A stretch of DNA of 64,000 bases from Candidatus Atabeyarchaeum deiterrae (GTDB taxonomy: Archaea; Asgardarchaeota; Atabeyarchaeia; Atabeyarchaeales; Atabeyarchaeaceae). The stretch spans positions 32,001 to 96,000 of the forward strand of contig CP147780.1 in assembly GCA_037310415.1 (NCBI GenBank). Reading direction: 5' to 3'. Both the position numbers and the translations under genes were made by a program. The notes beneath the pieces are model-generated. The model worked only from the letters and a program-made list of their open reading frames with translations, had not been told where the DNA came from and did not search any database. This document shows, one piece after another, positions 414 to 35,672 of this stretch (position 1 is the first letter of the stretch; each line of letters starts with the position of its first letter).

Positions 414-3404
414 GTGGCAGTCAAGGAGATTCCAAAACAGCTTTCGCTTCGAGAGCTTGAGCAGAGAACCTTGGAAGAGTGGCGTGTCAACAAGATATAC
501 GAGAAAGCAAAGGAGAAGCTGAAAGGAAAACCTCGCTTCAACTTCATAGATGGACCGCCGTACACCACCGGTTCGATCCACTTGGGGACAGCTTGGAACA
601 AGATAATGAAAGACATAGTCCTGCGATTCAAGAGGATGAGAGGATTTGAGGTAAACGACACACCTGGATACGATATGCATGGGCTACCTATAGAAGTCAA
701 AGTGGAGCAGGAGCTGAATATCAAAAGCAAGAAGGAAATAGAGACGAATGTCGTCAAGTTCGTAGAGAAATGTAGAGAGTTCGCGCTTAGCAACTTAGAT
801 ACGATGAGTCAGCAATTCAGTGAGCTTGGAGTTTGGATGGATTGGAAGAAACCCTACATGACGCTGAGCGATTCATACATAGAAGGAATATGGAAGACAA
901 TCAAACTTGCCTATGATAGGGGCTACGTGTATAGAGGAGTGAAGGTTCTCGAAGTCTGCCCAAGATGTGAGACGGCGCTCGCGAGACACGAGCATGAATA
1001 TCACACCGTCACCGACGTTTCAATATTCGTGAAGTTCAAGATTAAGTCAAGACCAAATGAATTTTTGTTAGTGTGGACTACTACACCGTGGACATTGCCA
1101 GCCAACTTGGCAGTTATGGTTCACCCGGACTTCGAGTATGTTAAGGCAAAGGTTGGGACCGAGGTTTGGGTAATAGCCAAAGCTATGGCAACAACCTTGC
1201 TGCAAGGCGTGTTCGAAAAGAACTTTGAGGTTCTCGAAGAATTCAAGGGAATGGATCTCGAGGGATTGAAATATGAGCACCCCTTAGTACAGGAGGTCCC
1301 GATTCAAGCTGAACTCGACAAGAAGTACAAGAAAGCACATACTGTTGTTCTTAGCGCTGACTACGTGACTCTTGAACAGGGAACCGGGTTGGTTCATTGT
1401 GCGCCAGGGCACGGACCTGAAGACTTCGAAGTGGGAAAGCAGAACGGCTTGCCTCCGTTCTCACCTTTGGATGTTTCTAAGTTTTCGTCTGAAGGCGGCA
1501 AATATGCAGGCATGTTCCCCAAGAAAGCTGACGAGCTCATAATCAACGACTTGGAGCACAAAGGGCTACTAGTATACAAGGGCACCATAGAGCATGAATA
1601 TGCTCATTGCTGGAGGTGCAAGAGCCCGCTTCTGTTCCAAGCCACAAGCCAATGGTTCATAAAAGTGGTCAGCTTAAAGGATGAAATGCACAAAATGAAC
1701 AGTGAAACATCATGGGTTCCTGACTGGGCTGGCCACCAGTGGTTCAAGAACTGGATTGATGGACTACAGGACTGGTGCATATCTCGACAGAGATACTGGG
1801 GAGCCCCCTTACCCATGTGGATCTGTGACAAGTGTGGGCATGTGGAGGTTCTTGGTTCAAAGCAGGAACTTGTCGCAAAATCTGGCAAAACACCAAAGGA
1901 GCTCCACAGACCTTGGGTTGACGAAGCAACCTGGAAATGTGAACAGTGCCATGGAAAAGGTACGAAGCGTAGAATATCCGATGTCTTAGATGTTTGGCTT
2001 GACAGTGGATCATGCATATGGGCTACGCTACCCGTCACAACCGGAATGGCAGACTATGATGACTGGAAGGAACTGGATTTCATAATTGAAGGGAAGGAAC
2101 AGATAAGGGGATGGTTCAATTCGCTCATGTGCTCAAGCATGGTTGCGTACGGCAGGTGGCCATACAAATCAGTTTACATGCATGGATTCATGTGCGATGA
2201 ACAAGGACGGGAAATGCACAAGTCGCTCGGTAACTATATTGAACCATCAGAAGTCATACCAAAACACGGCGTCGAATCATATAGGTTCTATGTCTCCAAA
2301 TCGGCGCCACCAGGCGAAGATATACGCTTTAATTGGAAGGATGTCGCGGACACGGAGAGGTTCTTAAACATTACTTGGAACGTCTACGTATTCGCATCAA
2401 CGTTCATGGCTGAGGCTGGATTCAATCCTGGCAAGGTCAGGAGCACAAAAGTTCAGCTTCTGCCAGAAGATAAGTGGATACTCTCGCGCACAAACTCCGT
2501 GGTCAAACAGATAACCAACGAACTGGATGGCTACCAGATACCCACTGTGACGAGGCTACTGCAGGATCTGATTGTCAAGGATTTGAGCAGGTGGTACATA
2601 AGATTAATCCGAGCAAGGACATGGGTCACGACTTCAGGCCCAAGCAAGACAGCGGCACTCAACACATTATTCAATGTCCTCGAGAAACTGACTTACATAC
2701 TCGCGCCAATAACTCCCATACTCGCTGAGGCTTTGTACCAGTCGCTTGTCAGACCGACCATGGCGAATCCACCAGAAAGCGTGCATCTTTGCGAGTGGCC
2801 AAAGCACTCAGAAGAACTAATAAACACTGACCTTGAAGCAAAGATGGACCACGTGCGGGAAATAGTCGAAGGAACACTGGCAATAAGACAGGAAGCAAAA
2901 GTAAAACTAAGGTGGCCTTGCAGGAGACTTGTGATAGTTCCCAAGGAAAAAGAATGGGTCGACATACGTGAGCTCCTGGAAGTTGTAAGAGACCAAGCAA
3001 GTGTCAAAGAAGTACATATCCTCAGCAAACTCTTGGCAAAGGACAAGACTGAGGACCTGAGAGAAAAGGAAACCTCGACATGCACGATATACCTTGACGT
3101 ATCAACCACTGAAGAACTTGAATCAGAAAGACTCGCAAAAGACTTCACGCGACAAGTTCAATCACTCAGAAAGAAATATGGATACATTGTGACCGACAAG
3201 ATAGAGCTAGTAGTAGCGAGCAAGGACAAACAAATACTCGAAGGGCTCGAGAAACAAGAACAACAAATCAAGAGCAAGATTGGAGCGGTGAAAATAGAGG
3301 GACTTGGGGAAATGCCAGAAGAACTCAAAGACTACGACGCTAAAGGCGAATTCAAATATCAAGATGAGAAGATTCAGGTAGCGTTCCGACGAAAGAAAAC
3401 TTAA
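414..3404 (+). CDS. ileS: Isoleucine--tRNA ligase (archaeal/eukaryote-type)
   Basis: 996 aa; DGPPY..GSIHLGTAWNK (HIGH), WTTTPWTLPAN and GTGLVHCAPGHG (editing domain), DWCISRQRYWG, EMHKSLGN (KMSKS variant). Confidence 0.97.
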   Translation: MAVKEIPKQLSLRELEQRTLEEWRVNKIYEKAKEKLKGKPRFNFIDGPPYTTGSIHLGTAWNKIMKDIVLRFKRMRGFEVNDTPGYDMHGLPIEVKVEQELNIKSKKEIETNVVKFVEKCREFALSNLDTMSQQFSELGVWMDWKKPYMTLSDSYIEGIWKTIKLAYDRGYVYRGVKVLEVCPRCETALARHEHEYHTVTDVSIFVKFKIKSRPNEFLLVWTTTPWTLPANLAVMVHPDFEYVKAKVGTEVWVIAKAMATTLLQGVFEKNFEVLEEFKGMDLEGLKYEHPLVQEVPIQAELDKKYKKAHTVVLSADYVTLEQGTGLVHCAPGHGPEDFEVGKQNGLPPFSPLDVSKFSSEGGKYAGMFPKKADELIINDLEHKGLLVYKGTIEHEYAHCWRCKSPLLFQATSQWFIKVVSLKDEMHKMNSETSWVPDWAGHQWFKNWIDGLQDWCISRQRYWGAPLPMWICDKCGHVEVLGSKQELVAKSGKTPKELHRPWVDEATWKCEQCHGKGTKRRISDVLDVWLDSGSCIWATLPVTTGMADYDDWKELDFIIEGKEQIRGWFNSLMCSSMVAYGRWPYKSVYMHGFMCDEQGREMHKSLGNYIEPSEVIPKHGVESYRFYVSKSAPPGEDIRFNWKDVADTERFLNITWNVYVFASTFMAEAGFNPGKVRSTKVQLLPEDKWILSRTNSVVKQITNELDGYQIPTVTRLLQDLIVKDLSRWYIRLIRARTWVTTSGPSKTAALNTLFNVLEKLTYILAPITPILAEALYQSLVRPTMANPPESVHLCEWPKHSEELINTDLEAKMDHVREIVEGTLAIRQEAKVKLRWPCRRLVIVPKEKEWVDIRELLEVVRDQASVKEVHILSKLLAKDKTEDLREKETSTCTIYLDVSTTEELESERLAKDFTRQVQSLRKKYGYIVTDKIELVVASKDKQILEGLEKQEQQIKSKIGAVKIEGLGEMPEELKDYDAKGEFKYQDEKIQVAFRRKKT

Positions 3405-3407
3405 TAA
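3391..3407 (+). promoter_or_regulatory. Putative BRE/TATA promoter of the tRNA gene, overlapping the ileS stop codon
   Basis: GAAAGAAAAC-TTAATAA ends about 34 nt upstream of the mature tRNA 5' end. Confidence 0.45.
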
Positions 3408-3440
3408 CACCAACTAAACAGAGAGAAAAACAATGCCATA

Positions 3441-3652
3441 GGGCCCGTGGCTTAGCCTGGCTTACTTTGGGATCATACTTTCGTTTGTTCCCTTTGTCCA
3501 GACAAAGCGACAGTTGATGGCGACAGCCGTCGCCGCGAAGGCCTTATACGACCACGCTTTGTACAAAGCCTGAGACAGCCGTAAGAGTTAGGGTAATCGG
3601 CTAGGCGATTGCCTCTTCGGTAAGATCGTGGGTTCGAATCCCACCGGGCCCA
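3441..3652 (+). tRNA. tRNA-Ile(TAT) with four introns (proposed exons 3441-3462, 3504-3511, 3540-3548, 3577-3583, 3624-3652)
   Basis: Acceptor stem GGGCCCG/CGGGCCC plus A73; T arm GTGGG-TTCGAAT-CCCAC. The spliced product gives D stem GCTT/AAGC, anticodon stem ACGGC/GCCGT with loop CTTATAA, and variable loop AGATC, 75 nt in total. BHB central helices are evident for introns 1, 3 and 4. Confidence 0.85.
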
Positions 3653-3658
3653 TCACTA

Positions 3659-3680
3659 CTTTTCCAAGTTTTTTCATTTT
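3659..3680 (+). terminator. T-rich archaeal terminator after the tRNA
   Basis: CTTTTCCAAGTTTTTTCATTTT directly downstream of the discriminator base. Confidence 0.5.
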
Positions 3681-3908: not shown

Positions 3909-6080
3909 CTACAAGATTCTGAAGCAACCGAAGCACGGGAATCTGATAGGCGTGACACTGAATTGGTAGTCTGCCCAACCATTAGACATAGTCGGGCTGA
4001 CGATCATGATCACGTAGCTGATCTGTCCAGCGTATCCCAAGGTCCAACCTGTCTCAGTCTTGTGATTGAGCCACATGTCGTATGGAACGTACATCGTACC
4101 ACAGCGTGTCTGTATTGCGCAGACGAGCGTCACCTGGAAGTTTATGTCAGGATAGACTGGAGTCAATGTCAGTGCGCTGCCGCTCACGCTTGCGCCCTGT
4201 ATGAACCATCCTTCGTATGTGGTCGCCCAGTCAGTCATGTAGCGGAATCCTATCAAGACGTTTTGTCCTGAGTAGTAGGACAGGTCGAATGTCATAGTGG
4301 TCCAACTAGGCCAGTCTGGGTTATAGTCTGTGAGTCCAGGGAGGTTTGCGACAATATCTGGATGCGCTGATGGGTCGTGATCTGAAGTAGCGTACTCATT
4401 TGCCAGTGATGTCCACGTATTGCCATTGTCTGTTGAGACTTGCACGAAGCAGAAGTCCCAGAAGGATTCTGCGCCATACATTGTAACCAATGTGAGAACC
4501 GGATTTGATGGATCCACATAAGCTTTGCCAAAGAGAAGCGCGTTATATAGATCTGCACTTCCTGACCACCAGTAACCACCAGTGCTATTGAAAGTCCAGC
4601 CAAATACGGAGGAGTCATCTCCGTTAAATTGTACAAGTGCCAGCTTTCTCCAGTCTTGGAATTTTATGTAGTCGCTGCCATAAGCCCCGATCATTGATAC
4701 ACCCGTGTCATAGCCCAAGATTGTCTTTGTCGTTCCGAAGTCTGTGCCCCTGGTCCAGGGAACCGGCAAGCAATTGATGTCATGCATCGCTACTTGAGTT
4801 ATCGCTGGGTCATTCAGGTTTATGCTCTTGTAGTTGTATTTTCCGCATCCTGGGAAGTCTGAGCGGATCAGGTTCGCAAGTCTCCAGTTGTGGTACACAT
4901 CGTCGAACCTAACCTTGTATCCAAAACTAGACAAAACGGAGTCAACGCCTTGGATCCCCGGGATGCCTGACTGCACGTATTGCGTAAGGAAGCCAACTCC
5001 ACCGTAGTGGTCAGTCAGGTAGTGTGCCCATAGTTCGGCGGCACCGTAATCTGCGAGAATGTTGATGTCTCCTTGGTCGCCCCACTGCGTCAGCGAATTG
5101 TCTGGGGTTGCAAAGTAGCTGTTGATATCGTTCGTATCTATTCCGAAGCCGCATAGGTACTCGGCGTACATGCTGCAGCCTTCATTCATGAATAGGTCAC
5201 CAGCAGGTTGCCAGTCTTGGTGGATATCGTGTTGGAATTCATGCGCGACTGTTCCCTCGTAGGTGTGAGGTCGGTTGACAACGAGTTCTGGATGATCAGG
5301 GAACCATTGCTGTCCTTCGGCACCGAGTCTTCGCCACCACTGCCAGCAGTCAATGTGGATCATGTTCCTATTGTAGTAGACCAATGACTGAGTTGGACTG
5401 TAGAATCCGATTGTGTAGTACGGGTAGTTCGGGTCGTAGTAATTAGCATCGCGGATGTTGAGAACTTTCAGTATGACTCTCTGTGGGTTCGTCGTATTAA
5501 TCCAGTTCCAGTAGTACGATGGGAAACCCGATAGCTCAAAGATGGTATTTGTCCCATCTTTATCGAAGGGCTTTCCAAAGGAGTTTGTGTCCGTTGGGTA
5601 TATGATATTGTTGAATTCGTCTGCAAGATATTGGCACATTTCGTCAGTAATCGTCAGGTTGAGTACGTAGCCATTTCTTGGGTCGCCAGGTAGGAACCAT
5701 AGGTAGTCCTGTGTCCAGACTTCAACATTTCCTGATATAGCTCTGAGTGTCATATAAGGTTGGGATCCAGTCAGAGTGCCTCTGCTTATCGATCTCAGGT
5801 AATAATCGTATACCTTAGTGCCAATTGGAGGAGTCGTTCCGACGGCGAGAGCGTTTGCCTCAGCGTATGCGCCATCTGTTTCCTGTAAGTCAGACGCAGC
5901 GTTCACGGTAGGCATTGCTACTGTTCCTGCCAGACCACTTCGCCAATCCACTGGCTGGTAGTCTGGAAGAGACTTGCTAGATGGGCTGGATGGACTTGAT
6001 GCTTGCACCGGTAAGGCTAGGGAATACATTGAAAGCGACAATGTCACGACGATAAACATTGCTAGAATCTTCTTGTTCAT
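3909..6080 (-). CDS. Secreted zinc metallopeptidase (immune inhibitor A / M6-M30-like) with C-terminal beta-sandwich domain
   Basis: Signal peptide; AHEFQH (HExxH) followed by NEG; C-terminal WDF..VQVSTDNGNTW...FDLS.Y.G..V.IGFRY.TD motif typical of InhA-like proteins. Confidence 0.8.
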   Translation of the reverse strand: MNKKILAMFIVVTLSLSMYSLALPVQASSPSSPSSKSLPDYQPVDWRSGLAGTVAMPTVNAASDLQETDGAYAEANALAVGTTPPIGTKVYDYYLRSISRGTLTGSQPYMTLRAISGNVEVWTQDYLWFLPGDPRNGYVLNLTITDEMCQYLADEFNNIIYPTDTNSFGKPFDKDGTNTIFELSGFPSYYWNWINTTNPQRVILKVLNIRDANYYDPNYPYYTIGFYSPTQSLVYYNRNMIHIDCWQWWRRLGAEGQQWFPDHPELVVNRPHTYEGTVAHEFQHDIHQDWQPAGDLFMNEGCSMYAEYLCGFGIDTNDINSYFATPDNSLTQWGDQGDINILADYGAAELWAHYLTDHYGGVGFLTQYVQSGIPGIQGVDSVLSSFGYKVRFDDVYHNWRLANLIRSDFPGCGKYNYKSINLNDPAITQVAMHDINCLPVPWTRGTDFGTTKTILGYDTGVSMIGAYGSDYIKFQDWRKLALVQFNGDDSSVFGWTFNSTGGYWWSGSADLYNALLFGKAYVDPSNPVLTLVTMYGAESFWDFCFVQVSTDNGNTWTSLANEYATSDHDPSAHPDIVANLPGLTDYNPDWPSWTTMTFDLSYYSGQNVLIGFRYMTDWATTYEGWFIQGASVSGSALTLTPVYPDINFQVTLVCAIQTRCGTMYVPYDMWLNHKTETGWTLGYAGQISYVIMIVSPTMSNGWADYQFSVTPIRFPCFGCFRIL

Positions 6081-35303: not shown

Positions 35304-35672
35304 TCATTCTTTCTGCACTGTTATGCTGATCGTGGACACGTTTCTTGTTCTTCCGTCTTCTTCCTTGATTGCTTCTGTCCCGATTTCTATTGCCTTGACT
35401 TTGCATTTTCCTTGCAGAAATCTTGTTCTGGCTATTTCAACGACGTCAACGGCCTTTGAGATAGCTCTACCACGGGCTTTGATGGAAATGTCGCCCGGGC
35501 TCTTGTTGAACTGAAAGACTGTCGCAACGACGTAGTTCATGGTGTCTTTGTTCCCCACAAAGATCACATTCTCAGGGGAACGCTCACCTTGGTACGAACG
35601 TTCTTTCGGAGGAGCACGCTCCCTTGGAGCTTCAGCTGCTGCTTCTTGATCCGTTCTCTTTTTTCCAGGCAT
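35304..35672 (-). CDS. albA: DNA/RNA-binding protein Alba with charged N-terminal extension
   Basis: IFVGNK.TMNYV, IKARGRAISKAVDVVE, RNVSTISI. Confidence 0.95.
   Translation of the reverse strand: MPGKKRTDQEAAAEAPRERAPPKERSYQGERSPENVIFVGNKDTMNYVVATVFQFNKSPGDISIKARGRAISKAVDVVEIARTRFLQGKCKVKAIEIGTEAIKEEDGRTRNVSTISITVQKE

Follow-up and report, generated by a model that had tools for sequence, protein, structure and literature searches.

Comparative evidence for a four-intron tRNA-Ile(UAU) gene downstream of ileS in the Asgard archaeon Atabeyarchaeia-2

The DNA analyzed here, referred to as the window, is a stretch of 64,000 nucleotides (G000:C1:32001-96000) from the genome of Atabeyarchaeia-2 (G000), which is a single contig of 2.76 Mb with an estimated completeness of ~97%. 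Within the window, ileS is followed on the same strand by a gene for tRNA-Ile(UAU), and the ileS stop codon lies 36 nt upstream of the tRNA gene. The positions of the exons and introns, of the neighboring elements and of the orthologous loci are collected in Table 1. The terminal CCA is absent from the gene, and the 3' flank reads TCA. Farther downstream, a 723-aa ORF occupies window positions 3909-6080 on the minus strand; apart from an InhA-like MAM domain (PF20773, 4.7e-12), this ORF is uncharacterised.

Table 1. Features of the tRNA-Ile(UAU) locus (window coordinates unless an accession is given; tRNA positions abbreviated as nt) and its listed orthologs
Feature	Position	Strand	Description
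ileS	414..3404	+	isoleucine-tRNA ligase, 996 aa; TIGR00392, 914 bits vs cut-off 621
Possible TATA box	3401..3408	+	TTAATAAC; overlaps ileS stop codon; inferred from sequence reading
tRNA-Ile(UAU) gene	3441..3652	+	212 nt, 5 exons and 4 introns in the present model; same ends as published tRNAscan-SE call
Exon 1	3441..3462	+	22 nt; acceptor 5' strand, nt 8-9, D-stem 5' strand, D-loop up to nt 20a
Intron 1	3463..3503	+	41 nt, D-loop 20a/21; CTGG/CCAG 4/4, bulges CT^T and AC^A
Exon 2	3504..3511	+	8 nt, AAAGCGAC, nt 21-28; contiguous with exon 3 in G002 and L024
Intron 2	3512..3539	+	28 nt, anticodon stem 28/29; AGCG/CGCG 3/4
Second GCGACAG copy	3520..3526	+	first copy 3507-3513; makes decoy 5' splice site 3524/3525
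Exon 3	3540..3548	+	9 nt, GGCCTTATA, nt 29-37; holds anticodon TAT
Intron 3	3549..3576	+	28 nt, canonical 37/38; CTTA/TGAG 4/4
Helix X, intron strand	3555..3560	+	intron 3 nt 7-12, CGCTTT; pairs AAAGCG at 3504-3509 (nt 21-26)
Exon 4	3577..3583	+	7 nt, AGCCGTA, nt 38-44
Intron 4	3584..3623	+	40 nt, variable loop 44/45; GCCG/CGGT 4/4
Exon 5	3624..3652	+	29 nt, nt 45-73; T arm, acceptor 3' strand, discriminator A
T-rich tract	3660..3680	+	T4, T6, T4; likely archaeal terminator, inferred from sequence reading
Ortholog G001	CP147779.1, 36840-37083 (L022:441-684)		Atabeyarchaeia-1; family f1; 5 introns
Ortholog G002	JAHPYV010000047		MAG LC30; family f1; 3 introns
Ortholog L024	L024:216-392		metagenome contig Ga0187774_10249773; family f1; 3 introns
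Ortholog G003 / G014			second Asgard family f2; 3 introns (short)

When the five exons were joined, a 75-nt tRNA-Ile(UAU) was obtained, which ARAGORN called as Ile(tat) and in which 21/21 stem pairs are Watson-Crick, with no mismatch. The join reproduced letter for letter the 75-mer that had been read from this DNA in an earlier note, and the exon and intron coordinates given there were all correct, as were the four BHB helices with their 3-nt bulges (CTGG/CCAG, AGCG/CGCG, CTTA/TGAG and GCCG/CGGT). In the case of the unspliced DNA, no tRNA was called by ARAGORN anywhere in the window, and no Rfam match was obtained at the gathering threshold. The expectation that standard annotators would miss the gene thus held for these two tools, but not for tRNAscan-SE, which had found the same ends and reported a two-intron possible pseudogene (PMC11291895). 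In the table "SRVP_Atabeyarchaeota_2_curated.FINAL" of Supp. Data 4 (Valentin-Alvarado et al. 2024, PMC11291895), the tRNA coordinates of which agree with the present genome in every row, the locus is given as 35441-35652, corresponding to window 3441-3652, and is listed as Ile TAT with an Infernal score of 52.4, the label "possible pseudo", and introns at 35525-35539 and 35549-35576. That call captured the gene ends and the canonical intron without resolving the D-loop, full anticodon-stem and variable-loop introns. The corrected four-intron model of the Ile(UAU) locus is new here.

The excision sites were evaluated with a fixed BHB rule, in which the 4-bp helix consists of the four bases ending two positions before each cut, and the cut falls after the second base of each 3-nt bulge. 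Applied to 59 published introns of Atabeyarchaeia-2, the rule gave 4/4 pairs in 45 and 3/4 pairs in 11. At the Ile(UAU) locus, introns 1, 3 and 4 showed the complete helix and intron 2 the relaxed form. Helices with 4/4 pairs were present in only 2.2% of all (p,q) boundary pairs of the locus, and none of the boundaries shifted by ≤3 nt (48 per intron) reached 4/4 around any intron. At boundaries fixed by the cloverleaf, three helices of 4/4 and one of at least 3/4 correspond to P ~6e-6. Acceptance of a spliced product by ARAGORN was regarded as weak evidence and was dropped as a criterion because artificial multi-intron splicings pass at another locus: at the Ile(GAU) locus, 17,559 length-compatible combinations resulted from brute-force removal of "introns" with 4/4 helices, and many of them were ARAGORN-positive with different anticodons. 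The decisive support for the four-intron model is comparative, and the cloverleaf alone would be unconvincing.

Every ortholog listed in Table 1 gave a 75-nt Ile(UAU) tRNA once its introns were excised, and the exon blocks were the same. The D-loop, 37/38 and variable-loop introns were common to all of them, and a homologue of intron 1 was identified in G001, G002, L024 and G003. The anticodon-stem intron was found only in Atabeyarchaeia-2 (28/29) and Atabeyarchaeia-1 (30/31) and was absent in G002, L024 and G003. In the case of Atabeyarchaeia-1, this intron is 28 nt long, its sequence is unrelated to that of intron 2 of Atabeyarchaeia-2, and it has a strict hBHBh' motif (CGCC/GGTG). The same gene contains an extra D-loop intron of 34 nt (helix TTAG/CTAA) that leaves a 5-nt exon, TGGCT; in total, its introns measure 34, 42, 28, 29 and 36 nt, with helices of 4/4, 4/4, 4/4, 3/4 and 4/4 pairs, respectively. 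This five-intron ortholog, which was unannotated before, is also new here.

The exons and introns of these genes have diverged to different extents. The mature tRNAs of MAG LC30 and the metagenome contig are identical (75/75), and their introns are 77%, 90% and 60% identical. Intron 3 (37/38) is the most conserved intron, with 66-90% identity among orthologs. Across three distinct orthologs, every stem pair is maintained (21/21); the six variable pairs have all changed on both sides (6/6) with none broken, and the compensatory pairs 13-22 and 27-43 straddle introns. Since six stem pairs change by compensatory substitutions, the locus was interpreted as a functional spliced tRNA gene, not a pseudogene. 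An identical locus was also present on DNA contigs from two other studies. The comparison of orthologous loci had been suggested as a check in the earlier note, and it showed relatives with conserved exons and compensatory stems in place of a decaying pseudogene. Taken together, the cloverleaf, the BHB helices and the orthologs support what had been proposed there, namely one tRNA gene with four BHB introns and internal exons of 8, 9 and 7 nt.

Intron 2 had been singled out as the least certain of the four introns, and this assessment was borne out by its 3/4 pairs, weak h' helix and decoy site. The outermost pair of its central helix is an A.G mismatch, pairing in the h' helix is poor, and the BHB motif faces competition from an internal 6-bp hairpin. 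Moreover, the decoy 5' site at 3524/3525 uses the same helix, has a better local hairpin and offers an equal or better BHB for a 15-nt excision (3525-3539), and the 15-nt intron of tRNAscan-SE is the choice of this decoy site. Because a cut at the decoy only would strand 13 nt without a BHB, a productive product needs the cut at 3511/3512; removal in two steps (15 nt and then 13 nt) was ruled out, as the 13-nt remainder has no BHB. Thus, intron 2 removal is the weakest step of the splicing that we infer. As exons 2 and 3 are contiguous in MAG LC30, intron 2 is a clean insertion, and this contiguity offers independent, motif-free support for its boundaries.

In a functional gene, the gap between exons 2 and 3 might also be closed by something other than one 28-nt BHB excision, either by three cuts (at both GCGAC^A copies and the 3' site, with 13 nt discarded) or by a route that needs other factors or the prior removal of introns 1 and 3. 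Such processing would be in line with the two 5' sites, at both of which GCGAC^A faces one and the same CGCG strand, and with the cost of imposing the BHB on intron 2, which was 7.5 kcal/mol in the primary transcript and 1.8-1.9 kcal/mol after removal of introns 1 and 3 (nearest-neighbour model, 37 C). However, the leftover 13 nt would have no BHB of their own, and we consider these routes improbable. As they would end in the same tRNA, they would represent a variant of the four-intron model and not another gene structure.

The importance of the gene depends on how AUA codons are read in this genome. TiaS (PF08489) was not found in the three Atabeyarchaeaceae genomes searched (G000, G001 and G002); among 41 Asgard genomes (G000-G040) it was found in 23, in a family-consistent pattern, and the archaeal control genomes were positive (4/4). 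In the long ORFs of Atabeyarchaeia-2, ATA accounts for 24.6 per 1000 codons and 35% of Ile codons. The published tRNA list of the genome contains only two CAT tRNAs, Met and iMet (PMC11291895), and no paralog of the tRNA-Ile(UAU) gene was detected in the genome by BLAST, on which this absence rests. A loose scan for other UAU or CAU anticodon stem-loops gave 1654 matches, was not discriminating and was abandoned. As the genome lacks a detectable TiaS and uses AUA heavily, the Ile(UAU) tRNA is probably its only AUA decoder; an Ile2(CAU) tRNA or a second AUA decoder is possible because hidden tRNAs exist in this genome. If TiaS is absent, the usual archaeal agmatidine-modified tRNA-Ile2(CAU) could not be made, and the Ile(UAU) gene would probably be essential.

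The order of ileS followed by tRNA-Ile(UAU) recurs in Asgard families f1, f12, f15 and f20. The TiaS-negative families f1, f2, f9, f12 and f15 (in the genomes searched) are among those with UAU anticodon arms, as determined by a narrow pattern search that represents a partial test. Asgard lineages accordingly appear to use two different AUA-decoding systems. In Nanoarchaeum and Korarchaeum, tRNA-Ile(UAU) decodes AUA without a C34-modifying enzyme. A UAU anticodon is likewise found together with the absence of TiaS/TilS in Mycoplasma mobile (PMC3575796). Unlike the genes of these three organisms, the gene of Atabeyarchaeia-2 is linked to ileS and has four introns.

On the basis of the above, the published pseudogene label can be weighed. 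In this reading, a former tRNA-Ile gene was inactivated by insertions, chiefly the 28 nt in the anticodon stem, and is now decaying, as would be compatible with its low tRNAscan-SE score (52.4), the label itself, and the degenerate BHB of intron 2 with its decoy site. However, a decaying gene does not account for the 21/21 Watson-Crick stem pairs with no mismatch, for exons that are kept while the introns diverge, with six compensatory pairs and none broken, or for the conserved ileS synteny and the identical locus in independent metagenomes; nor does it fit a genome without TiaS in which AUA is heavily used. Decay was thus judged very unlikely. Hardly any weight can be given to the published two-intron model (15 + 28 nt) as the complete structure, with the remaining extra sequence retained as enlarged loops. 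Although two introns are given by both tRNAscan-SE and R2DT, the resulting 169-nt "tRNA" would have a disrupted variable region and D arm. In the other two segments the BHB helices are perfect, and these segments diverge fast among orthologs; moreover, introns in the D arm are systematically overlooked by tRNAscan-SE in this clade (10.64898/2026.10.13.758758). The four-intron model is preferred, and the probability that it is right and that the gene is functional in Atabeyarchaeia-2 is estimated at roughly 0.85.

To our knowledge, the tRNA genes of Thermoproteales hold a maximum of three introns each. As a statement on tRNA genes in general, the limit of three introns given in the earlier note is outdated, since four-intron tRNAs are reported in PMC11291895 and up to five introns in one tRNA gene in the preprint of Goswami et al. 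(10.64898/2026.10.13.758758, October 2026). The four-intron rows of Supp. Data 4 comprise Lys-TTT in both Atabeyarchaeia genomes and Arg-TCT and Ile2-CAT in Freyarchaeia, and R2DT inspection raised Trp-CCA of Atabeyarchaeia-2 and Leu-GAG of Frey from three to four introns (PMC11291895). Overall, 92-95% of tRNA genes in Atabeyarchaeia and Freyarchaeia are interrupted, many at non-canonical sites (PMC11291895; 10.64898/2026.10.13.758758). The Ile(UAU) gene resembles these multi-intron tRNAs as an instance of the same phenomenon in the same genome. It differs from the published Atabeyarchaeia tables, where Ile(UAU) has two introns and is a "possible pseudo", and where the Atabeyarchaeia-1 ortholog and both Ile(GAU) genes are absent. 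In the preprint of Goswami et al., predicted pseudogenes were left out of the burden estimates and the compact reference pool (10.64898/2026.10.13.758758). As tRNA genes with four or more introns were already published for the same genome, the contribution of the present analysis is a corrected annotation, its comparative context and leads.

Splicing of the gene would require a suitable endonuclease and ligase. Two PF01974 splicing-endonuclease paralogs were found in Atabeyarchaeia-2, encoded at 215.6 kb and 625.6 kb of the genome. The alpha-like EndA has its best match in the catalytic alpha subunit of A. pernix (3p1z_B, 1.9e-46), aligns without gaps through the N-terminal loop region and keeps Tyr, His and Lys. 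The second paralog aligns to the EndA of M. jannaschii, with a Thr at the position of the catalytic His, in keeping with a structural role as the putative beta subunit. RtcB is present as well (582 bits). Endonucleases of the (alpha-beta)2 type are known to cut non-canonical BHB sites (PMC3241643; PMC5829648). BHB introns at non-canonical positions, several per gene, are described for Thermoproteales (Sugahara et al. 2008, as cited in PMC11291895; Yoshihisa 2014, PMC4090602). The likeness includes several non-canonical BHB introns per gene and, probably, a broad-specificity (alpha-beta)2 EndA, whereas Thermoproteales belong to another phylum, and exon length here goes down to 7 nt (5 nt in the Atabeyarchaeia-1 ortholog).

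The cost of imposing each BHB was calculated with the same nearest-neighbour model at 37 C. In the primary transcript, it amounted to 1.8 kcal/mol for intron 1 and 1.9 kcal/mol for intron 4, and in the case of intron 3 it decreased from 5.3 to 2.2 kcal/mol after the other introns were removed. The intron 4 helix uses the 3' strand of the anticodon stem and shares GCC(G) with the intron 3 BHB, and the two are mutually exclusive. Because the BHBs of introns 3 and 4 share bases and the internal exons have only 7-9 nt, excision is likely to be stepwise and not simultaneous, and in the folding model introns 1 and 4 would be removed first. Folding was suggestive of an order in Atabeyarchaeia-2, and the probabilities of the helix described below, compared before and after intron 1 is removed, were inconsistent among four orthologs; no order is claimed. 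In the route proposed here, transcription would yield a precursor with a length of at least 212 nt, and a Crenarchaeal-type (alpha-beta)2 endonuclease would cut the four introns after the second base of each 3-nt bulge. The introns of 41, 28, 28 and 40 nt would leave stepwise, RtcB would ligate the exons, and end trimming and CCA addition would give a 75-nt tRNA that reads AUA codons and is presumably charged with isoleucine.

A further feature of the gene is a complementarity between the D arm and the canonical intron, termed helix X here. Nucleotides 7-12 of intron 3 can form 6 bp with exon nucleotides 21-26, which comprise the 3' strand of the D stem together with nt 21 and 26. The site is unique in each of six orthologs except Atabeyarchaeia-1, where it is one of two. 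Across 13 orthologs from five Asgard families, 77/78 cells pair, and both partners have changed in three of the six pairs, with the variants AAAGCG/CGCTTT, GGAGCG/CGCTTC or CGCTCC, AGAGCG/CGCTCT and GGGGCG/CGTCCC. The observed values were reached in 0/500 shuffles, and slid controls paired at 38-67%. The complementarity was absent in those f23 and f9 orthologs that have no 20a/21 D-loop intron. Helix X competes with the D stem and, from a reading of the geometry, would also compete with the h' helix and BHB of intron 3 itself. In folding predictions, it reached P ≥0.57 in some precursor state of 4/4 orthologs, in an order that was not consistent. This covarying helix between the D arm and the canonical intron is new here. 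A box C/D guide role for introns 2 and 3 was also considered and was rejected by eye, as the box-like words are not kept in orthologs.

As to its role, we can only speculate that helix X serves as a lock, as a splint for the 8-nt exon or as a checkpoint. In yeast tRNA-Ile(UAU), the canonical intron is required for pseudouridines 34 and 36. The Asgard gene resembles the eukaryotic one in that AUA is read by a UAU tRNA with a conserved 37/38 intron, and the canonical intron is the most conserved one among the Asgard orthologs; this resemblance is to be taken as a lead only. It is conceivable, though doubtful, that the 37/38 intron acts through helix X as a lock or splint for exon 2, fixing the order of intron removal or imposing a checkpoint ahead of anticodon-loop completion, and that, together with the absence of TiaS and the linkage to ileS, it belongs to a eukaryote-like mode of AUA decoding, where anticodon modification may also depend on the intron.

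Other tRNA genes of these genomes were found to be hidden in a similar manner. The published 40-tRNA list of Atabeyarchaeia-1 contains no Ile tRNA at all. In Atabeyarchaeia-2, an unlisted tRNA-Ile(GAU) gene is located outside the window (L001:863-1045 = G000:C1:459473-459655), just upstream of tRNA-Ala and 16S rRNA. In its model, three introns lie in the D-loop, within the anticodon (35/36) and in the variable loop; each helix has 3/4 pairs, the outermost position being a purine-purine mismatch, and is accompanied by an h' helix of 5 bp. In the Atabeyarchaeia-1 ortholog (L033:180-390), a fourth intron is located in the T-loop, and the acceptor stem shows a compensatory change. Another unlisted locus outside the window (G000:C1:1514976-1515102, minus strand) was called by ARAGORN as an intron-containing tRNA, with the T arm AGGGG/CCCCT and the acceptor 3' strand ACTCCCC. 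Since the published list of Atabeyarchaeia-2 has no Asp, Cys, Thr-CGT or Ser-CGA tRNA, further hidden tRNA genes are likely.

The orthologs with three, four and five introns provide a clean natural series for BHB intron gain, which is also suited to the study of how exons of 5-9 nt are dealt with by endonuclease and ligase. In the two complete Atabeyarchaeia genomes, each of the two isoleucine tRNAs has been either overlooked or mis-annotated, and inferences on tRNA complement and codon usage for this lineage are affected. In Atabeyarchaeia-2, what was annotated as a "possible pseudogene" is probably the sole AUA-reading tRNA of a complete Asgard genome.
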